Shown here: piece by piece, positions 2,790 through 14,221 of the stretch
Layout of the letters: every line of letters begins with the position of its first letter
How positions within the stretch are numbered: position 1 is the stretch's first letter
Source: Thermotogota bacterium
GTDB lineage: Bacteria; Thermotogota; Thermotogae; UBA12178
NCBI GenBank assembly: GCA_003538775.1
Contig: DPRG01000105.1
Coordinates: 12,476-76,475 of the forward strand
Direction: 5' to 3'
Length of the DNA stretch: 64,000 nucleotides
Notes under the pieces: model-generated
Seen by the model: the letters and a program-made list of their open reading frames with translations, nothing else
What the model was told of the DNA's origin: nothing
The model's database searches: none
Made by a program: the position numbers and the translations under genes

Positions 2790-2895
2790 AGCGCGTTCCT
2801 ATGAAAAGGTTTTCACATCCGTTTTTTTCTCTTCGGTAATGTCTGGCACGATGTTGCTACAACTAATAACGGAAGATCCCGGAGGAGGTGCTCAT

Positions 2896-4128
2896 ATGGA
2901 TTTTGAATCCAAAGTGTCAGATCTCGCGAAGGGTATCAAATCTTCCATAATAAGAGAACTTTTAAAGTATGCCTCAGAGCCTGGCTTTATCTCTTTTGGC
3001 GGTGGCGTCCCAGATCCTGAAACCTTCCCAAGAAAGGAGCTTGCCGAAATAGCCAGAGAAGTCGTTGAAAAGGAATATCGGTTCGCCTTACAGTATGGTA
3101 CCACAGAGGGAGATCCCCTTTTGAAGGCTCAGTACATAAAGTACCTTGAAAGGTGGGAAGGGTTAAAGGATCTAAAAGAGAAGAACCTTTTGATAACAGT
3201 TGGATCACAGCAGGCACTCGATTTGATAGGTAGAACTTTTTTGGACAGCGAGAGCATCATCGCTATCAGTCAGCCAGCGTATCTGGGGGCTGTCTCGGCA
3301 TTTAAGATGAGAAACCCAAGATTCCTTACTATCCCTCTTTCTGATGACGGTATGGAAACGGAGATTCTTGAAAAGAAATTGAGGTCACTTACTGCGGCGG
3401 AGTTAAAGAAGTTTAAGTTCGTTTACACCGTTCCGAACTTCCATAACCCTGCTGGAGTGACTCTCACACTTGAAAGAAGAAAACATCTGCTTGAACTCGC
3501 AGAGAGATATGACTTTTTCGTAGTTGAAGACGATCCTTATGGCGCCTTGCGATTCGAGGGTGAACATATACCTTCTGTCTTCAAGCTCGGTGGTATGGAC
3601 AGAGTCGTGCTGCTTAACACCTTCAGTAAGGTTTTGAGCCCCGGATTGCGGATAGGCCTGGTGATCGCGCATGAAAGCGTCATATCAAAACTGGTGAAGG
3701 TGAAGCAAGGGGTTGATCTATGCTCTCCCAGTTTGACACAGAGGATCGCGGCGCGCTACATGGAGCGTTACGATATGCTTGAAAGACTCAGAAAGACTCT
3801 TGCCATATACAGGGAAAAGAAGGACGTTATGATGAAGGCTTTCGAGGAGCACCTCTCCGATTTAGACGCCCACTGGACGAGACCAAAAGGAGGACTCTTC
3901 AGCTGGGTGGTCTTGCCTGAGGGGTTTGACACTCTGGAAATGCTGGAACTTGGCAAGGAGTACAAAATTCTCTGGATCCCGGGTGCCGCTTTCCATGTAG
4001 ATGGAAGCGGTCAGAACACCATGAGGGTATCTTTCTGCCTCCCTTCCAAGGAAGAGATCGAAGAGGGTGTCAGACGAATCAGGAAAGTCGTAGAGGCTTA
4101 TAAATCTTCCAAAGTGATTTCGAGGTGA
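2896..4128 (+). CDS. PLP-dependent aminotransferase, class I/II fold (2-aminoadipate/aromatic/branched-chain type)
   Basis: Aminotransferase_1_2-like sequence (GGGVPDPETFP..., NPAGVT, FSKVLSPGLRIG with Lys); start moved to ATG 2896 after GGAGGAGG. Confidence 0.8.
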   Translation: MDFESKVSDLAKGIKSSIIRELLKYASEPGFISFGGGVPDPETFPRKELAEIAREVVEKEYRFALQYGTTEGDPLLKAQYIKYLERWEGLKDLKEKNLLITVGSQQALDLIGRTFLDSESIIAISQPAYLGAVSAFKMRNPRFLTIPLSDDGMETEILEKKLRSLTAAELKKFKFVYTVPNFHNPAGVTLTLERRKHLLELAERYDFFVVEDDPYGALRFEGEHIPSVFKLGGMDRVVLLNTFSKVLSPGLRIGLVIAHESVISKLVKVKQGVDLCSPSLTQRIAARYMERYDMLERLRKTLAIYREKKDVMMKAFEEHLSDLDAHWTRPKGGLFSWVVLPEGFDTLEMLELGKEYKILWIPGAAFHVDGSGQNTMRVSFCLPSKEEIEEGVRRIRKVVEAYKSSKVISR

Positions 4129-4132
4129 TGGT

Positions 4133-5220
4133 GTGTACAGGATACTCGTTATAAATCCCGGTTCTACGTCCACAAAAGTTGCGATCTTTGAAGATGAAAG
4201 AAAGGTAAGCGAAGAAAAGCTTACACACAGACCTGATGAGCTCGAAAAGTATGGAAGAATAGCCGATCAGGAACCTATGAGGCGCGCCGCTGTTGAAGCG
4301 TTTATAAGTTCTCAGGGATATCGTATCGAAGATTTCCATGCGATAGCAGCGCGCGGCGGTGTCTTAAAACCCATACCAAGCGGTACCTACAGGGTTGATG
4401 AATACATGGTGGATTATCTTCTGCATCGTGTTCCAGTGGAACACGCTTCCAATCTCGCGGCGGTAATTGGATACAGGCTTGGACATCCACACGGGATCCC
4501 CTGTTTTATAACCGATCCGGTCTCTGTGGATGAAATGTGGGATGAGGCGAGATTTTCGGGTATTCCCGATATCGAAAGAAAGAGTTACTCTCATGCCCTC
4601 AACACGAAAGCGGTTGCCAGAAAAGTGGCAGAGGAACTTGGCAAATCCTATGAAGAGTTAAAGATGGTCATAGTTCATCTTGGTTGTGGGATCTCAGTCA
4701 GCGCTCATATGAACGGTCGGATGGTGGATGTTAACAACGCCAACGATGAAGGGCCGTTCAGTCCGGAAAGGACAGGGGAACTTCCTGTAGGTGACGTTGT
4801 GAGAGAGGCTTATTCGGGAAAATACACAGCAAGAGAACACAAGAAACGGTTTGTAGGAAAAGGTGGGCTTGTAGCCTATCTCGGTACGAACGATCTTCGC
4901 GAGGCTTTTGAAAAGGCGGAGAGTTCGGAGAACGCCCGGCTTGTACTGGAAGCGATGGCCTATCAGATAGCCAAAGAAATTGGTGGAATGTGTGCAATCC
5001 TTGGATCGAATCCTGATGCGATTGTGATCACAGGTGGAATGGCACATAGTCAGCGGTTTGTTCAGATGATTTTACCTTATATATCAAGATTTGGATTGGT
5101 GACAGTGGTTCCAGGCGAATTCGAAATGGAGGCATTGGCACTGGGAGCCTTGAGAGTTCTCAGGGGTGAGGAATCTGCCAGGGACTATAAAGAAGCAGTG
5201 CAAGGGAGGGAGACGGAAGG

Positions 5221-5224
<4 letters not shown>
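4133..5224 (+). CDS. buk: butyrate (branched-chain fatty acid) kinase
   Basis: [22 protein letters not shown]-terminus, acetate/butyrate kinase family; GTG start after GGTGA. Confidence 0.9.
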
Positions 5225-7258
<2,034 letters not shown>

Positions 7259-7259
7259 G

Positions 7260-7928
7260 ATGATACATATACTTACTGGACCATTTGGCAGCGGAAAAAC
7301 GGAAATTTCTATAAACCTCGCTCTTCGTTTGAAAGAAGTGGCAGAAGATGTGAGTTTGCTGGATCTCGATGTTATAACACCTTATTTCAGGATAAGGGAC
7401 GTCGCTGATTTACTTGGTGAGATGGGTATCGATGTGGTAACAGTGAAAAGAGAGTTGAAATATATGGATTTGCCCATAATTCCGGGACGCCTTACAGAGC
7501 TTTTTTCTAAGGATAACGCACACATTGTGGTGGATCTTGGCGGAGACGATGACGGCGCAAGGGTCATAAGTTCTCTGAAATCCTTACTGGATGGCAAGCG
7601 TATTAGCGTGTATTTCGTGGTTAACGTTTTCAGGCCTTTCAATGAAACGGTAGATGAGATCTGCTATAACATCGAAAGGCTTTCTTCGAGATCGAGACTG
7701 AAGTTTGATGCCATAATCAACAACTCCAACCTCGGTGACTTAAGCACAGAAGAAGTTGTTTTGAAAGGTGAAGATGTAGTCACACGGGTTTCCGAGATCA
7801 CAGGCATTCCGGTAAAATGGACCGTTTTAGATGAAGCACTCGCAAAACACGCAGACATTTCAGGTTTTAAATATCCCGTCTTTTTGATAAAGAGATTCCT
7901 GGGGACACCATGGGAGGGCAGGAGGTGA
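7260..7928 (+). CDS. uncharacterized P-loop NTPase/kinase-like protein
   Basis: Walker A GPFGSGKT near N-terminus, VVDLGGDDDG Walker-B-like; translationally coupled between buk2 and the VOR ferredoxin gene. Confidence 0.55.
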   Translation: MIHILTGPFGSGKTEISINLALRLKEVAEDVSLLDLDVITPYFRIRDVADLLGEMGIDVVTVKRELKYMDLPIIPGRLTELFSKDNAHIVVDLGGDDDGARVISSLKSLLDGKRISVYFVVNVFRPFNETVDEICYNIERLSSRSRLKFDAIINNSNLGDLSTEEVVLKGEDVVTRVSEITGIPVKWTVLDEALAKHADISGFKYPVFLIKRFLGTPWEGRR

Positions 7929-7932
7929 GAGT

Positions 7933-8175
7933 ATGGCCAAGGTAGAGGGATATATCGAGATCGACGCCGAAAGGTGTAAGGGTTGTGGATTGTGTATCAA
8001 CGCATGTCCGGTGAACGTGATCGAGTTTTCCGAGGACTTCAATTCAAAGGGCTACCACCCCGCCAGGTACAAAGGTGAGGGCTGTATCGCCTGCGGTTTC
8101 TGCTATTTGAGTTGTCCGGACGTGTGTATAACGGTTTTCCGCGGCGCTCGAAAGAAGAGCCCTGTTAATGTGTAA
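7933..8175 (+). CDS. vorD: 2-oxoacid:ferredoxin oxidoreductase delta subunit (2x[4Fe-4S] ferredoxin)
   Basis: CKGCGLCINACP and CIACGFCYLSCP cysteine motifs, 80 aa. Confidence 0.8.
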   Translation: MAKVEGYIEIDAERCKGCGLCINACPVNVIEFSEDFNSKGYHPARYKGEGCIACGFCYLSCPDVCITVFRGARKKSPVNV

Positions 8176-8190
8176 GGAGAGAGAACGAGT

Positions 8191-9243
8191 ATGAAAAAGC
8201 TCATGATGAAAGGCAATGAGGCTATAGCAGAAGCCGCTATAAGGGCGGGGTGTAGACTTTATTTCGGCTATCCCATAACCCCCCAAAGTGAGATAGCGGA
8301 ATACATGTCCAGACGACTTCCCGAAGTTGGTGGAACCTTTCTTCAAACGGAAAGCGAAGTGGCAACGGTCAACATGGTCTATGGTGCCGCATGTACTGGA
8401 AAAAGAGTTATGACCTCAACTTCTTCTCCCGGTTTCAGTCTAATGCAGGAAGGTATCTCCTATATCGCCGGTGCAGAGCTTCCTTGCGTGTTTGTGAACG
8501 TCGTGCGTGGTGGTCCGGGGTTGGGTGATATACAGCCCGCCCAGAGCGATTATTTTCAAGCCACAAAGGGCGGAGGACATGGAGATTATCGTCTTCTTGT
8601 ACTCGCGCCTTCGACCCTTCAGGAAGCGATTGAGTTGACAATGCTGGCTTTTGATCTGGCGGATAAATACAGGAATCCAGCGCTGATTCTCGCTGATGGG
8701 ATGATAGGACAGATGATGGAACCCGTTGAACTACCTCCGATGAGGGATCTGTCAACACTACCCGATCATTCCAGCTGGGCATTAACCGGTGCTGAGGGAA
8801 GAGCGCCGCGTAAAGTAACGTCATTCAATATAGACCCGTACGGCCTGGAGGAGATGAACAAACGGTATCAGGAAAAATACAGGCGTGTGGAGCGCGAAGA
8901 ACAGCGATGGGAAGAGTACAAAACGGAGAATGCAGAGTATCTGCTTGTGGGTTATGGCACCATGGGAAGGATCTTGAAGAGCGTCGCTGACAGACTGGAA
9001 GAAGAAGGACTTGCGGTGGGAGTCTTCAGGCCAATCTCGCTATGGCCATTCCCTGATAGACGATTGAAGGAACTTTCAGAAAAAGTCCGGTTCGTTTTCA
9101 CCGTGGAAATGAGCAGCGGACAGATGGTGGAGGATGTCCGCCTTGCTGTTGACGGAAGGATTCCGGTACATTTCTACGGTCGCATGGGCGGAGTCGTTCC
9201 AACACCCGAAGAAGTTATCAGGGCTTTCAAGAAGCTCCTTTGA
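8191..9243 (+). CDS. vorA: 2-oxoacid (ketoisovalerate):ferredoxin oxidoreductase alpha subunit
   Basis: POR/VOR alpha family, 350 aa, follows delta subunit. Confidence 0.85.
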
Positions 9244-9255
9244 GGAGGCGATAAG

Positions 9256-10005
9256 GTGGAAGTACGTGTGGCTTTTAGCGGTCCAAAATCGTTGAGTGGA
9301 AAGGAATTTACTTACTGCCCTGGTTGTCATCATGGAATCATTCACCGTCTGGTTGCTGAGGTGATAGACGAGCTTGGCATACAGGAAAAGACAATAATGG
9401 TGGCTCCGGTGGGATGTTCCGTGTTCGCGTATGAGTTCTTCGATGTCGATGGCACTGTTGCACCTCATGGTAGAGCCCTTGCTGTGGCTACGGGAATGAA
9501 AAGAGCTCTTCCAGACAGGGTGGTTTTCACCTACCAGGGAGACGGTGATCTGGCGGCTATAGGAACGGCTGAGACTGTACATGCGGCAAATAGAGGAGAG
9601 AAGCTCACGACGATCTTCGTGAACAACGCGGTGTATGGTATGACAGGTGGACAGATGGCACCTACGACGCTTCTTGGTCAGAAAACAACAACCACACCTT
9701 ATGGCAGACGCGCCGAAAACGATGGTTATCCTATTCATATGTCCGAGATTCTGAGTACAATGCGGGGAGTTGCCTACCTCGAGCGTGTTACGGTGAGCAC
9801 TCCTCAGGATATAAGAAACGCCAAAAAAGCTATAAAAAAGGCCTTTCTTGCGCAGATAAAGAACATTGGATTCGGACTCGTTGAGGTGCTCAGCACCTGC
9901 CCCACGAACTGGGGTATGACCCCTGTAGAAGCTCAACAGTGGCTTCTTGAGAACATGACAAAGGAATTTCCTCCTAAGCTTTTCATTGACAGGGTGGGAG
10001 ATTGA
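9256..10005 (+). CDS. vorB: 2-oxoacid:ferredoxin oxidoreductase beta subunit (TPP-binding)
   Basis: CPGCHHG..., GDGD TPP motif; GTG start after GAGGAGG. Confidence 0.85.
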
Positions 10006-10553
10006 AGATGGCTTATCACGGCATAGTGATAGCGGGTTTTGGTGGACAGGGAGTTATGCTCATGGGGCAGATCATAGCCGAAGCGGCTGTGATTGAAGGT
10101 AAACATTCCACGTGGCTTCCTTCTTATGGCCCGGAAATGCGCGGTGGCACCGCGAATTGCACGGTGGTAGTTGATGAGAGACCGGTGGCTTCGCCTGTTA
10201 TCGATTCGCCGACTGAAGTGATTGCGATGAACTACCCTTCGATGGTAAAATTTGGCGGGAGGCTCCAGAGCGGGGGCATTCTTTTTGTGAATTCATCAGT
10301 GGTGGATAGAGATATCGAGCGGGATGATATTGAAATCATAAAGGTTCCCGTAAACGAGATAGCAGAAGAAGTGGGTAATCCAAGGGTATCGAACATGGTG
10401 ATGTTAGGAGCCTTCGTTGAAGTTACTGGTATTGTTGGCACTGAAGCGGTGAAGGAAGCATTGAAGCACAAACTCACCGGCTCAAAATCGGCTCTATTAG
10501 AGCTCAATTTTGAAGCGGTAAGAAGGGGAGCAGAATTCGTTAGAAGGAGGTGA
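10002..10553 (+). CDS. vorC: 2-oxoacid:ferredoxin oxidoreductase gamma subunit
   Basis: POR gamma family GFGGQGV motif; likely ATG 10008. Confidence 0.8.
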
Positions 10554-10577
10554 AGCCACCGTTTCGGTGGCGTATCC

Positions 10578-11822
10578 GTGAGCCTGTACGAAAACGCGTT
10601 GAAGCAGTTCAACAAAGCTGCTGATCTGATGAATCTTGATCCTGGCCTTAAAGAAGTTCTCTCATATCCAAAGAGAGAACTAACCGTGAACTTTCCTGTG
10701 AAGATGGATAACGGCGAAATACGTGTATTCACAGGCTACAGGGTTCAGCATAATCTCTCCAGAGGTCCAGCCAAAGGTGGTATCCGTTACCATCCGGATG
10801 TGACGCTCGATGAAGTCAAAGCCTTGGCGTTTTTGATGACCTGGAAGTGCGCAGTGGTGAACATTCCATACGGAGGTGCTAAAGGCGGTGTAAAGGTCGA
10901 TCCTTCAAAACTTTCAGAGGACGAGCTGGAGAGACTCAGTCGAAGGTACTTTTCAGAGATACGGATCATAGTCGGCCCTGACGAAGATATACCCGCTCCG
11001 GATGTGAACACGAATCCTAAAGTGATGGCGTGGTATATGGATACCTACAGCATGGATGTGGGACACACCGTGCTCAGCGTGGTAACTGGTAAGCCCCTCG
11101 ATATTGGTGGATCAGCGGGAAGGCTGGAGGCTACGGGAAGAGGGGTGAGAGTGGTCACCGAAGAGGCCGCGAATTATCTGGGGCTCGATACGAAGAATAT
11201 GACCGTGGCAGTTCAGGGGTTTGGAAATGTTGGATCACACGCTGCCCTCCTGATAAGCGAAGAACTTGGAAGCAAAGTTGTAGCTGTAAGCGATGTTAAC
11301 GGGGGTGTCTACAACCCTGAAGGTCTTGATATAGAAGAGTTGATAGCTTACAGGGATTCAAACGGAGGTACTATAAAGGGTTATCCTAAGGCTGAACCTA
11401 TTACCAACGAAGAACTGCTGACTATGGACGTTGACGTCTTGATTCCCGCTGCTCTGGAAAACGTGATAACTGCAGAAAACGCGGAAGAAATAAAAGCCAA
11501 ACTTGTGGTAGAAGGAGCTAACGGGCCGACCACACCGGAAGCCGATGAAATTTTACAAAAGAAAGGTATATTTGTTGTACCTGACATACTCGCAAACGCT
11601 GGCGGTGTAACGGTATCTTATTTCGAGTGGGTCCAGGGATTGCAGTGGTATTTCTGGGAGATCGACGACGTTAGAAAATCTCTTCACAAAGTCATGAAAA
11701 ACGCTTTTGCGGATGTTATGAAAGCACGCGCTCGTTTCAACTGCGATATGAGATCGGCAGCCTACACACTGGCCATAGAAAAAGTAGCTCTGGCCACAAA
11801 GCTCAGAGGGATATATCCATAA
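10578..11822 (+). CDS. gdhA: glutamate dehydrogenase (Glu/Leu/Phe/Val dehydrogenase family)
   Basis: GPAKGGIRYHP, GFGNVG motifs; GTG start. Confidence 0.9.
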   Translation: MSLYENALKQFNKAADLMNLDPGLKEVLSYPKRELTVNFPVKMDNGEIRVFTGYRVQHNLSRGPAKGGIRYHPDVTLDEVKALAFLMTWKCAVVNIPYGGAKGGVKVDPSKLSEDELERLSRRYFSEIRIIVGPDEDIPAPDVNTNPKVMAWYMDTYSMDVGHTVLSVVTGKPLDIGGSAGRLEATGRGVRVVTEEAANYLGLDTKNMTVAVQGFGNVGSHAALLISEELGSKVVAVSDVNGGVYNPEGLDIEELIAYRDSNGGTIKGYPKAEPITNEELLTMDVDVLIPAALENVITAENAEEIKAKLVVEGANGPTTPEADEILQKKGIFVVPDILANAGGVTVSYFEWVQGLQWYFWEIDDVRKSLHKVMKNAFADVMKARARFNCDMRSAAYTLAIEKVALATKLRGIYP

Positions 11823-11860: not shown

Positions 11861-12943
11861 GTGTGGTCGGTGGATCTGTCTGTTGAAATCTGTGGACTTA
11901 AGTTCAGAAACCCGCTTCTTCCTGCTTCGGGTCCTCTTGTCGGCGACGCCGAGAAACTACTCTTTTTATACGAGCAGGGTGTTGGAGGCCTTGTTACAAA
12001 AACGATTTCAACGAAGGCAGCTGAGGTCCCACGGCCATGTATCTATGCTACCAGGGATCTTGTAATCAACGCAGAGTTGTGGTCTGAATATCCCCCAGAA
12101 TACTGGAAAAAAGAGGTTTTTCCAAAGATAAGAGATCTGGATATTCCCGTGATTGTCAGCCTTGGATACACGGAATCAGACGTGGATATTCTCGTACCCA
12201 TGTTCGACGAAAACGCTGATGCTTTCGAATTTTCGACGCATTATGTGGGGAAATCGCTTGATCCTATAGTTGCCGTGGTGAAAACCGCGAGGAAACACAC
12301 CAGAAAACCCATATTCATGAAACTGAGCCCTCACATGCCCGATCCCGTTGAATTTGCGAAGGTCGTTAAGGAAGCTGGTGCTGACGGGATAGTTGCGACC
12401 AACTCGCTTGGTCCGGTGTATGTGGCTGACAAAAAAACAGGAAAAAGCCCCCTTGGAAGCACGGGAGGTTATGGATGGATCTCAGGTCCGGTGTTGAAAC
12501 CCATCTCGCTGGCTATAGTCAGAAGAATAGCGGAAGAGGTGGATATCCCGATCATTGGCGTTGGTGGCGTGGCAAAAGCAGAGGATGTACTCGATTACCT
12601 GGAATCCGGAGCAAGCGCGGTCCAGATGCTTTCGGCAGCTTTGATATTTGGGAAGCAGCTTTATGGAAAGATAGTTTCCTCGCTTCCTCAGGTGCTCGAA
12701 AAGAAGGGTTATTCGAATGTCAAAGACGCAATAAAACGACCGATTCGATCCCAGGCAACCTACCAGAGGAATCTTCCAAGGGTCGATATGGAAAAATGCA
12801 CTCTATGTAGGCTATGTGAATACGTATGTCCATATTTCGCCATAACCGTTGCCGAAACCGTTATTGTCAACGAGGATGCCTGCTTTGGCTGTGGGTTGTG
12901 TCAATCGCGCTGCCCCGTTTCTGCTATTGAGGGAGTGTTCTAA
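11861..12943 (+). CDS. dihydroorotate dehydrogenase-family flavoprotein fused to C-terminal 2x[4Fe-4S] ferredoxin domain (PreA/DHOD-1B-like)
   Basis: N-term LKFRNPLLPASGPL DHOD fold; C-term CTLCRLCEYVCP...CFGCGLCQSRCP; GTG start. Confidence 0.7.
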   Translation: MWSVDLSVEICGLKFRNPLLPASGPLVGDAEKLLFLYEQGVGGLVTKTISTKAAEVPRPCIYATRDLVINAELWSEYPPEYWKKEVFPKIRDLDIPVIVSLGYTESDVDILVPMFDENADAFEFSTHYVGKSLDPIVAVVKTARKHTRKPIFMKLSPHMPDPVEFAKVVKEAGADGIVATNSLGPVYVADKKTGKSPLGSTGGYGWISGPVLKPISLAIVRRIAEEVDIPIIGVGGVAKAEDVLDYLESGASAVQMLSAALIFGKQLYGKIVSSLPQVLEKKGYSNVKDAIKRPIRSQATYQRNLPRVDMEKCTLCRLCEYVCPYFAITVAETVIVNEDACFGCGLCQSRCPVSAIEGVF

Positions 12944-12944
12944 A

Positions 12945-14183
12945 TTGAAGCATCTCCTTAAATGTGTAACCTGTGGAAGAGAGTTCGAGCCGGAGCCATC
13001 CCTTTACACCTGTCCCCATTGTGGGGACAGGTTTGGTACTTTGGAGGTTCTGTATGATTACGACAGAGCCCATTTCGACTCTCTTTCACCACACAGCGAA
13101 CTGGGCATTGGTCAGTTCCTTCCGCTTTTGCCGTTGGAGGGTCTTCCGGAACTTCCTTTTGTCGTGGGAAACACCCCTTTGATAAAACTCGAGAAGTTCG
13201 AAAGGCGTTATGGATTGAAGGCTTTCTATCTTAAAGACGACGGCAGAAATCCCACCGCCAGCTACAAGGATCGCGCCACGTACGTTGTCATAGGAAAGGC
13301 GCAGGAATGGGGTTTCAAAACGATCTTTGCCGCTTCCACAGGAAACGCTGCTACATCCCTTGCGGGCCTTACAGCGGCAGCTGGCCTGAAGGCCGTTGTT
13401 TTCGTCCCCGCGAGGATACCCGAAGGCAAACTCGCACAACTTCTCGTTTACGGCGCCACGGTTTTGATCGTCGACGGTTCGTACGATGATGCTTACGATC
13501 TCGCTGTGGAGGTGGGATTCAAGAAAGGATGGTACTGCAGGAATACCGCTATCAACCCCTATCTTCTGGAAGGCAAAAAGACAGGAGCTCTTGAACTTGC
13601 CTTGCAACTGAACTGGGACGTCCCGGATGTTGTTTTCGTTCCTGTGGGAGACGGCACGGTGATAAGCGGTATCTGTAAAGGTTTTATGGAGCTGAAAAAG
13701 ATAAGACGAATAGATACCATTCCAGCAGTTATTGGTGTGCAGGCAGAAGGCTCAGATATAGTCAAGCGTGTTTTCGAGCATTACATTGCAACAGGTGAGA
13801 TAGTTTTGATGGACAGAGAGGCTTCCACTATTGCAGACAGTATATCCGCTGGCAAGCCAAGGGATGTGGTTAAAGCCGTCAGGTATGTGAAGGAAACGGG
13901 CGGTACCTTTCTTTCCGTTAGTGACGAAGAGATTGGTACCGCGCTGGTGAGCCTGGCGAGGGAGACAGGCGTATTTGTGGAACCTGCCGCTGCTGCTTCA
14001 TATGCGGGATTTTTAAAGATGGCGGAGACAGGGGATTTGAAAAACAAAAGAGTTGCGGTTTTCGCGACAGGGAATGGTTTGAAGGATGTCAAAACCGCGC
14101 AGAGTTTTGTTGGGAAGGCTTTAAGGGTTTCCAACGATCCAGAAGAGGCCTTCCGCCTTTTGGATAAAATGGAGACTGTGTGA
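12945..14183 (+). CDS. thrC: threonine synthase with N-terminal zinc ribbon
   Basis: CVTCGREF...CPHCGD ribbon then PLP fold-type II with the PLP lysine in NPTASYKDRATY; TTG start 12945 after GAGGGAG (track 12849 overlaps upstream gene). Confidence 0.75.
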   Translation: MKHLLKCVTCGREFEPEPSLYTCPHCGDRFGTLEVLYDYDRAHFDSLSPHSELGIGQFLPLLPLEGLPELPFVVGNTPLIKLEKFERRYGLKAFYLKDDGRNPTASYKDRATYVVIGKAQEWGFKTIFAASTGNAATSLAGLTAAAGLKAVVFVPARIPEGKLAQLLVYGATVLIVDGSYDDAYDLAVEVGFKKGWYCRNTAINPYLLEGKKTGALELALQLNWDVPDVVFVPVGDGTVISGICKGFMELKKIRRIDTIPAVIGVQAEGSDIVKRVFEHYIATGEIVLMDREASTIADSISAGKPRDVVKAVRYVKETGGTFLSVSDEEIGTALVSLARETGVFVEPAAAASYAGFLKMAETGDLKNKRVAVFATGNGLKDVKTAQSFVGKALRVSNDPEEAFRLLDKMETV

Positions 14184-14186
14184 TGA

Positions 14187-14221
14187 GAATCGGGCGGATT
14201 AGCCGCCCGATTCTTTTGTTT
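14187..14221 (+). terminator. rho-independent terminator (11-bp GC-rich stem gaatcgggcgg/ccgcccgattc plus T-run)
   Basis: Perfect inverted repeat and TTTTGTTT tail immediately after thrC stop; convergent with E2 gene. Confidence 0.6.

Follow-up and report, generated by a model that had tools for sequence, protein, structure and literature searches.

A predicted SIMIBI-class P-loop NTPase encoded directly ahead of VorB-type 2-oxoacid:ferredoxin oxidoreductase genes in bacteria

Introduction

2-Oxoacid:ferredoxin oxidoreductases (OFORs) are central to anaerobic amino acid fermentation and to branched-chain fatty acid formation in guts and digesters and, running in reverse, to CO2 fixation. As far as we know and could find, they are treated as needing only the general Fe-S and thiamine pyrophosphate (TPP) machinery of the cell. 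Here, we analyze a gene for a P-loop protein that lies immediately upstream of a four-subunit OFOR of the VorB type in a 64,000-nucleotide stretch of a Thermotogota genome (contig DPRG01000105.1; the whole stretch is referred to below as the window), and we examine its family across bacteria.

Client-specific precedents for such a protein exist within the SIMIBI (signal recognition particle, MinD, and BioD) class of NTPases, namely, HypB (including its ATPase type), UreG, CooC, Ind1/NUBPL, the GPN-loop GTPases, and FlhF. In the MinD/ParA/Mrp group, several proteins serve the maturation of one particular enzyme, as CooC does for carbon monoxide dehydrogenase (CODH) and Ind1 for complex I, and the ATPase-type HypB, which has a deviant Walker A motif with a signature lysine, works with HypA on nickel. 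Extra genes in OFOR operons have also been described: Lin and Whitman reportedly studied PorE and PorF of Methanococcus maripaludis, which are Cys-rich Fe-S proteins. In the Aquificales, the pyruvate and 2-oxoglutarate oxidoreductases (POR and OGOR) have as an extra protein a fifth subunit that is CdhB-like and resembles the epsilon subunit of CODH/acetyl-CoA synthase (PMC10052474).

Results

Linkage of the P-loop gene to VorB-type OFOR genes

The P-loop gene is an open reading frame (ORF) of 222 codons for amino acids, whose ATG is the first start codon in its frame:

7260..7928, plus strand: SIMIBI-class P-loop NTPase gene, assigned from the ORF translation, homologs, an AlphaFold2 model, and fold matches

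An identical protein, annotated as "hypothetical protein," is present in Thermotogota metagenome-assembled genomes (MAGs), a word-indexed search returned 277 homologs, and the family comprises 2,994 representative clusters (at 50% identity) at an E value of ≤1e-3, 1,079 of them at ≤1e-30. The ORF is therefore coding and not a chance frame, in keeping with its treatment as a protein gene in an earlier note on this DNA, made from its letters alone. Public databases name family members "hypothetical protein," "nucleotide-binding protein," or "CobQ/CobB/MinD/ParA domain protein."

In a forward survey, one genome per species was scanned, giving 589 relatives, and the best 80 loci were analyzed; 76 were testable, and 4 ended too soon for linkage to be judged. 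Genes for the delta-ferredoxin subunit and the VorB-type alpha subunit lay directly downstream on the same strand in 66 of the 76 testable loci (87%), the alpha subunit in linked loci being 50 to 70% identical to that of the window. The cassette was found within 7 kb in 69 of the 76, in 3 of these at a distance of 3 to 7 kb. Linked loci came from at least nine phyla, including Thermotogota, Atribacterota, Desulfobacterota, Zixibacteria, Chloroflexota, Sumerlaeota, Acidobacteriota, Bradymonadales, and Bacillota (the last represented by Neobacillus, Clostridia, Desulforamulus, Thermoanaerobacterales, and Halanaerobiales). The median distance from the P-loop stop codon to the delta start was 33 nt, and the P-loop gene still preceded delta in two loci (L052 and L064) with the rearranged order delta-beta-gamma-alpha. 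In one of these, an Acidobacteria MAG (L064; P-loop gene at 10001-10672), there are two tandem VorB-type cassettes, at about +825 and +7398, one with the order delta-beta-gamma-alpha and one with delta-alpha-beta-gamma, and a single P-loop gene ahead of the first.

The linkage is specific to one OFOR subfamily, the VorB type. When all neighbors were clustered all against all, the commonest cluster besides the four OFOR subunit genes occurred in only 15 of the 80 loci; the conserved unit is the P-loop gene plus delta-alpha-beta-gamma. Linkage to the butyrate kinase (buk) and phosphate butyryltransferase (ptb) genes is confined to Thermotogota, Atribacterota, and some Bacillota and Chloroflexota. 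The setting given in the earlier note, in which the gene is wedged between buk2 and the genes for 2-oxoisovalerate:ferredoxin oxidoreductase (VOR) in a fermentation operon, is thus a Thermotogota-type arrangement and not the general one.

A different neighborhood was seen in Desulfobacterota loci (within the series L014 to L062), where buk and ptb are absent and ORFs at about +3.4 to +5.5 kb from the P-loop gene follow the P-loop-vorDABC genes. Judged only by N-terminal sequence and length, these seem to encode a HisC-like aminotransferase of ~367 amino acids (15 loci), a cytidylate kinase (10 loci), and a ribosomal protein S1-like protein of ~600 amino acids (9 loci), which hints at an anabolic or otherwise different physiological setting for the same module.

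Fold class of the P-loop protein

No Pfam or NCBIfam cut-off was reached by the P-loop protein. The sub-threshold matches (ParA/NUBPL, CbiA, MrpORP, MinD, and APS kinase) cover only about the first 40 residues; that to ParA (PF10609) has an E value of 3.4e-4 over residues 2 to 41 and a score of 20.6 against a gathering score of 27.1, and that to CbiA (PF01656) scores 18.1 against 25.4. Of 32 relatives, 24 matched CbiA and 18 matched ParA at an E value of ≤1e-3, while Pfam SRP54 gave no match for the window protein and was matched by 1 of the 32. No close solved relative turned up in sequence searches of the PDB, in which the best E value was 0.05 (4.5e-5 when a family profile was used) and the aligned region was limited to the P-loop and strand 2.

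The AlphaFold2 model, built from 32 homologs (mean predicted local distance difference test score [pLDDT], 88; predicted template modeling [TM] score, 0.88), has the features of the SIMIBI class: a seven-stranded, mostly parallel P-loop fold with a Walker A motif, an Asp after strand 2, and a Walker B Asp followed by Gly. The top Foldseek matches in the PDB were the G domains of SRP54, FtsY, and FlhF (E value, about 1e-6; TM score, 0.55 to 0.59), followed by ATPase-type HypB, Mrp-like proteins, and one GPN-loop GTPase. By this model, the P-loop protein is a stand-alone SIMIBI-class NTPase that is structurally nearest to the G domains of the signal recognition particle (SRP) type and falls outside every described family. 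The statement in the earlier note that the protein matches no family holds as far as family cut-offs go but is imprecise, in view of the sub-threshold ParA/NUBPL and CbiA matches and the clear SIMIBI fold.

Conserved motifs

Motif conservation was taken from an alignment of 257 family members, with residues numbered as in the window protein. Ten residues are invariant (G10, G12, K13, D35, D37, D92, G94, G95, G99, and N122), and R125, R44, P72, F43, and N155 are each conserved in at least 96% of the sequences. The family consensus reads G-[HN]-[YF]-GSGKTE ... D-L-D-[IV]-V-N-P-Y-F-R ... D-L-P ... D-V-G-G-[DN]-x-x-G-A in the N-terminal half and V-V-N-x-x-R-P ... I-N-N-[TS]-[NH]-L ... T-G-I-P ... 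[YF]-[ML]-x-x-P-W in the C-terminal half. In the window, the corresponding features are as follows:

7278..7304, plus strand: Walker A motif (P-loop), G7-PFGSGKT-E15; consensus G-[HN]-[YF]-G-S-G-K-T-E, with S11, T14, and E15 conserved at 94 to 97%
7362..7400, plus strand: D35-L-D37-VITPYFR44-IRD, a DxD (Walker A') followed by PYFR; F43 96%, R44 98%
7467..7475, plus strand: D70-L-P72 loop, an inserted segment of lower confidence (pLDDT 69 to 76); D70 90% (the remainder E), P72 98%
7527..7556, plus strand: Walker B/switch II strand, V90-VDLGGDDDG99; D92, G94, G95, and G99 invariant
7623..7637, plus strand: N122-VF-R125-P126 at the end of strand 4, the family-specific VVNxxRP; R125 in 256 of 257, P126 91%
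7719..7733, plus strand: N154-N155-S-N157-L158 after strand 5; N155 96%, position 157 N in 80% and H in 20%
7896..7913, plus strand: C-terminal tail F213-LGTP-W218, consensus [YF]-[ML]-x-x-P-W; W218 81%, F or Y in a further 13%

Both nucleotide-binding motifs read in the earlier note were found, namely, the Walker A sequence GPFGSGKT at residues 7 to 14 and the Walker B-like strand VVDLGGDDDG at residues 90 to 99. Position 8, where MinD carries its signature lysine, is H in 126, N in 56, A in 19, M in 13, and G in 12 of the 257 sequences and P in the window protein. An hhalign comparison with a manually entered Escherichia coli MinD sequence aligned the first 38 residues only; one with a likewise manually entered E. 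coli FtsY sequence placed PYFR over the G2 motif DTFR, in a short N-terminal alignment with a probability of only 52%. In the model, a helix-strand insertion occupies residues 45 to 60, and the tail with the conserved Trp is predicted to be flexible, with pLDDT dropping to 66 and then to 37. As we read the model topology, the NNxN after strand 5 stands where GTPases carry NKxD or TKxD, and specificity for ATP or GTP is therefore not readable from the sequence.

Metal-ligand residues were sought across the same alignment. No Cys is conserved: the highest Cys column reaches 12%, the median is one Cys per protein, and there is no CxxC or CxC; the window protein itself is cysteine-free. There is likewise no His-rich motif, and beyond the Walker A position, the only column with His in more than one-fifth of the sequences is 157.

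The operon in the window

The genes flanking the P-loop gene are those described in the earlier note: two butyrate kinases, phosphate butyryltransferase, the delta ferredoxin, and the OFOR alpha, beta, and gamma subunits. Together with further genes, they are laid out as follows:

2839-4128, plus strand: aminotransferase, upstream, same transcription unit
4133-5224, plus strand: butyrate kinase 1, upstream, same transcription unit
5221-6138, plus strand: phosphate butyryltransferase, upstream, same transcription unit
6143-7258, plus strand: butyrate kinase 2 (buk2), upstream, same transcription unit
7243..7250, plus strand: putative Shine-Dalgarno-like sequence GGTGAGGT, within the 3' end of buk2, ~10 nt 5' of the P-loop ATG
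7933..8175, plus strand: OFOR delta subunit, 2x[4Fe-4S] ferredoxin (NCBIfam OGOR_delta/PorD matches)
8191..9243, plus strand: OFOR alpha subunit, VorB type (NF005507 "VorB," 568 bits against a cut-off of 399)
9256..10005, plus strand: OFOR beta subunit, TPP binding (NCBIfam beta-subunit models)
10002..10553, plus strand: OFOR gamma subunit (NCBIfam PorC_KorC, 85.3 bits against a cut-off of 81.1)
10578-11822, plus strand: glutamate dehydrogenase, downstream of the OFOR genes
11861-12943, plus strand: DHOD/PreA-like protein with a ferredoxin domain, downstream
12849-14183, plus strand: ThrC-like ORF, downstream
14185-14215, plus strand: strong terminator-like hairpin with a 13-bp stem and 8 G-C pairs, the best formed on the plus strand of the scanned stretch

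The stop codon of buk2 (TGA, 7256-7258) is separated from the P-loop ATG by 1 nt, not by the 2 nt of the earlier note, whose other figure, 4 nt from the P-loop stop to the start of the delta-ferredoxin gene, is correct. Like the Shine-Dalgarno-like sequence within buk2, a second putative one, AGGAGGTGA, was read from the sequence ahead of the delta start. Within the scanned stretch, no terminator-like hairpin adjoins the P-loop gene or lies in its flanking intergenic gaps.

Thermosipho and Fervidobacterium have the same order, aminotransferase-buk-ptb-buk-P-loop-vorDABC, with a P-loop ortholog that is 42 to 44% identical. The two butyrate kinase paralogs of the window, on either side of the phosphate butyryltransferase gene, are 52% identical to each other, and the order buk-ptb-buk recurs in Thermotogota and Atribacterota loci (L001, L002, L005, L009, and L010) and in two further loci (L083 and L084). 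Downstream, the protein encoded at 11861-12943 resembles dihydroorotate and dihydropyrimidine dehydrogenases and has a C-terminal 2x[4Fe-4S] ferredoxin domain. The listed TTG start of the ThrC-like ORF overlaps this gene by 95 nt, and the N terminus has a zinc-ribbon-like look, with two CxxC pairs; translation probably begins at a more downstream codon. The two genes appear to be cotranscribed with the operon, in a unit that would end with the hairpin at 14185-14215. A perfect sigma-70-type consensus (12 of 12; TTGACA, 17 nt, TATAAT) is present at 2620-2648 on the minus strand, just ahead of the operon and facing away from it. An Rfam scan of the whole window (1-64000) gave no family at its gathering score.

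Discussion

A proposed accessory role

Genomic context, with the P-loop gene directly ahead of the VOR delta and alpha genes in 66 of 76 testable loci from nine or more phyla, supports a role dedicated to the oxidoreductase. The reading that we favor, while giving it no better than an even chance, is that the P-loop protein is a nucleotide-dependent, dimeric accessory factor acting in the assembly or regulation of the VorB-type four-subunit OFOR. What the analysis establishes is the fold class, the nucleotide-binding motifs, the lack of conserved Cys and His residues, and the co-inheritance with one OFOR subfamily. A VOR-dedicated role had been suggested in the earlier note, which named a maturation factor as one option; genomic context supports the dedication, but maturation of the kind in which the protein carries a metal or cluster is unlikely, given the lack of conserved Cys and His.

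In this role, Mg-NTP would be bound through K13 and T14, D35 and D37, and D92, with D35, D37, and D92 attending to Mg2+ and water, and the protein may form a nucleotide-dependent dimer as other SIMIBI proteins do. The catalytic arginine may be R44, in the PYFR motif. The NTP state would engage the OFOR, possibly via the conserved flexible C-terminal Trp tail, and this engagement may aid the assembly or maturation of a multisubunit, three-cluster enzyme or may hold or release its active state; NTP hydrolysis would then lead to release from the OFOR. No metal or Fe-S cluster would be carried by the NTPase itself.

Observations that weigh against a role tied to the OFOR

Several observations weigh against this proposal. 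In a reverse survey, 80 metagenomic loci were found with a VorB-type alpha profile, 63 of which were testable and 17 too short. The P-loop gene was directly upstream in 40 of the 63 operons, and in 23 (37%), no family member was present within 6 kb; the OFOR evidently can therefore exist without a copy encoded in cis. Most of the operons lacking the gene form one clade in the alpha-subunit tree, accompanied by a few scattered losses, and a comparison of neighbors revealed no substitute gene upstream of delta in them. The clade consists of metagenome contigs (L123, L127, L136, L141, L143, L144, L148, L149, L152, L154, L158, L159, L161, and L162).

From the P-loop side, 7 of the 76 loci are unlinked; these belong to Cloacimonadota, Christensenellales, and one other Clostridia MAG, and the unlinked genes fall into small clades, each confined to a lineage, that lie among linked genes. 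In Christensenellales-like Clostridia (L022, L041, L065, L042, and L053), the P-loop gene follows ORFs that resemble cdaA, for a diadenylate cyclase, and ybbR, for its regulator, by a reading of their N-terminal sequence only; in two of these loci (L042 and L053), an OFOR cassette lies 3.7 to 5.2 kb further downstream of the P-loop gene. According to a preprint, Cloacimonadota have vor genes only patchily or not at all. The VorB-type subfamily is often labeled 2-oxoglutarate oxidoreductase by the Joint Genome Institute, which makes assignments of VOR or 2-oxoglutarate oxidoreductase (KOR) by KEGG Orthology unreliable for it and tempers that report.

Three representative clusters (P0178, P0186, and P0216) are fusions of FolC with the P-loop protein, 667 to 672 amino acids long, in a valS-folC context. 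Because three separate clusters at 50% identity have the same architecture, the fusion is not an assembly artifact. Its FolC part is a complete folylpolyglutamate/dihydrofolate synthase (TIGR01499), and the fusion genes (L081, 568-2571; L082, 23-2026) are located after valS and before a SPOR-domain gene. Fusions to OFOR subunits were sought among the 150 best representatives, and none was found; only the FolC fusions and unannotated N-terminal extensions were present. Given the unlinked and fused members and the patchy vor genes, we keep open that the function is not strictly tied to the OFOR. Finally, the likeness of the protein to every known SIMIBI family is modest (TM score below 0.6, 13 to 26% identity), and full-text literature searches gave no publication that deals with this protein or with an OFOR-associated NTPase of any kind.

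Alternative explanations

The alternatives are taken in falling order of probability. The protein could be a regulatory NTPase or a protein kinase that switches the OFOR on and off or phosphorylates one of its subunits according to energy charge, by analogy with the dedicated kinases of 2-oxoacid dehydrogenase complexes or with the P-loop BY-kinases. We regard this as unlikely: a C-terminal tyrosine cluster, DxDxR, and a transmembrane activator partner are all missing, the best fold matches of the protein are SRP-type GTPases and not kinases, and no phosphatase partner was seen among the conserved neighbors.

Quite unlikely, in our estimate, is an ATP-dependent ligase or kinase of the BioD/CobQ/CTP-synthase type that acts on a substrate or cofactor of VOR, such as a carboxylate or carbamate, TPP, or CoA. 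BioD, CobQ, and CTP synthase share the broad fold class but score below SRP, Get3, and Mrp proteins, the pathway encoded in the window is complete without an additional step, and besides the OFOR itself, no conserved neighbor points to a substrate. The related idea of the earlier note, a CoA- or nucleotide-handling kinase, found no backing in fold or motif: Pfam kinase matches had E values of ≥0.05 and covered the P-loop only, and dephospho-CoA and nucleotide kinases are not SIMIBI proteins, which leaves the idea without fold support. A housekeeping nucleotide kinase without VOR linkage, which the note had set as the outcome that would overturn its view, was likewise not what emerged, with the kinase match restricted to Walker A and 66 of 76 loci linked. 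We reject a kinase or housekeeping assignment, since matches in Pfam, NCBIfam, and PDB sequences are at the level of the P-loop only.

A general cellular role that has nothing to do with the OFOR, in which case the gene would ride ahead of the vor cassette and be inherited along with it, is improbable. The exceptions described above speak for such a function, in particular the unlinked members beside cdaA-ybbR or fused to FolC beside valS, the unlinked Cloacimonadota members in a phylum with reportedly patchy vor genes, and the share of VorB-type operons that lack the gene. However, the gene is adjacent in 87% of testable loci, the gaps are short, and the pattern holds in at least nine phyla and through rearranged subunit orders, which is far beyond usual hitchhiking; the unlinked members are confined to small, lineage-specific clades among linked genes, and the linkage is to one OFOR subfamily.

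A fifth subunit, present in stoichiometric amounts, whose NTP hydrolysis is coupled to catalysis or electron transfer and might, for instance, drive an unfavorable reductive carboxylation, is in our view very improbable. Translational coupling and the first place in the cassette, immediately before the electron-entry delta subunit, speak for it, as does the presence of the gene in nonfermentative Desulfobacterota and Neobacillus, where buk and ptb are absent from the locus and the cassette precedes other genes. Against this stand the absence of redox cofactor ligands and the many operons of the same OFOR subfamily without the gene, and we know of no purified OFOR reported with an NTPase subunit. 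Put more broadly, and with equally slim prospects, VorB-type OFORs might be five-component, nucleotide-dependent enzymes in which NTP hydrolysis gates the docking of the delta ferredoxin or electron transfer or in which it activates or repairs the enzyme. If so, the protein would correspond to the ATP-driven partners that serve nitrogenase-like and radical enzymes, only without a cluster, and would shift the balance between 2-oxoacid synthase and oxidase in a reaction that has been regarded as requiring no energy input. The protein is not the fifth subunit of the Aquificales OFORs, as that subunit is CdhB-like (PMC10052474).

Delivery of clusters to the OFOR by an Fe-S carrier or metallochaperone, whether of the Mrp/NBP35/ApbC, the CooC, or the G3E type, is highly improbable, and this reading was rejected for want of conserved Cys or His ligands: no Cys column exceeds 12%, there is no CxxC, CxC, His-rich motif, or NKxD, and Walker B has an Asp and not the Glu of G3E proteins.

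Significance

If the accessory role that we favor is correct, a dedicated NTPase co-inherited with a widespread OFOR subfamily would constitute an unexamined layer of maturation or control and could account for the poor heterologous activity of such OFORs. The SIMIBI class would also gain a new branch that lacks a solved structure and has NNxN, in place of NKxD or TKxD, in an unusual base-recognition region.

Comparison with known systems

The SRP-family GTPases, although nearest in fold, are only 13 to 22% identical in sequence to the P-loop protein. SRP54/Ffh, FtsY/SR-alpha, and FlhF have a four-helix N domain, which is missing from the P-loop protein, whose strand 1 is formed by residues 2 to 6 and whose Walker A motif begins at residue 7. 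They also carry TKxD and DARGG; the P-loop family has neither and shows INNxNL (I-N-N-[ST]-[NH]-L) at the presumed place of TKxD. Whereas their role is protein targeting, the context of the P-loop family is a cytoplasmic oxidoreductase.

By sequence, the nearest group is that of MinD, ParA, Mrp-NBP35-Ind1 (NUBPL), and CooC, with which the P-loop family has the DxD of Walker A' in common. The signature lysine of their deviant Walker A motif (xKGGxGK[ST]) is absent, however, and the gathering scores of CbiA and ParA are not reached. In Mrp/NBP35/ApbC and CooC, a CxxC or CxC bridges a cluster or metal at the dimer interface; the P-loop family has none. The ATPase-type HypB of Thermococcus kodakarensis (PDB 3vx3 and 5auq), a member of the Mrp/MinD family, is among the nearest structures, but the P-loop family has H, N, or A at the lysine site, and its only conserved partners are OFOR genes.

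G3E GTPases (UreG, HypB, CobW, and MeaB) have a Walker B Glu (ExxG), NKxD, and metal-binding Cys or His, whereas the P-loop family has the invariant D92 and none of these. GPN-loop GTPases (Npa3/Gpn1 and PAB0955) are known from archaea and eukaryotes, and both their GPN motif and their NKxD are lacking in the P-loop family, the named sources of which, in the homolog search and the forward survey, are all bacterial. BY-kinases (Wzc, CapB, and VpsO) have DxDxR and a Tyr cluster; the P-loop protein has D35-L-D37-V-I, with no Arg at +2, and no Tyr cluster. With nucleotide and small-molecule kinases (APS kinase, CoaE-like proteins, and zeta toxin), it has no hidden Markov model match beyond the P-loop, and it lacks a lid fold of the nucleoside monophosphate kinase type.

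Among OFOR-associated proteins, PorE, PorF, and the fifth subunit of the Aquificales are encoded, like the P-loop protein, by extra genes in OFOR operons. These three are needed for or copurify with their enzymes; unlike the present family, none is a P-loop NTPase. We describe the P-loop family as new within a known class, with a proposed role as a client-specific accessory NTPase of a kind known for other metalloenzymes but not for OFORs.

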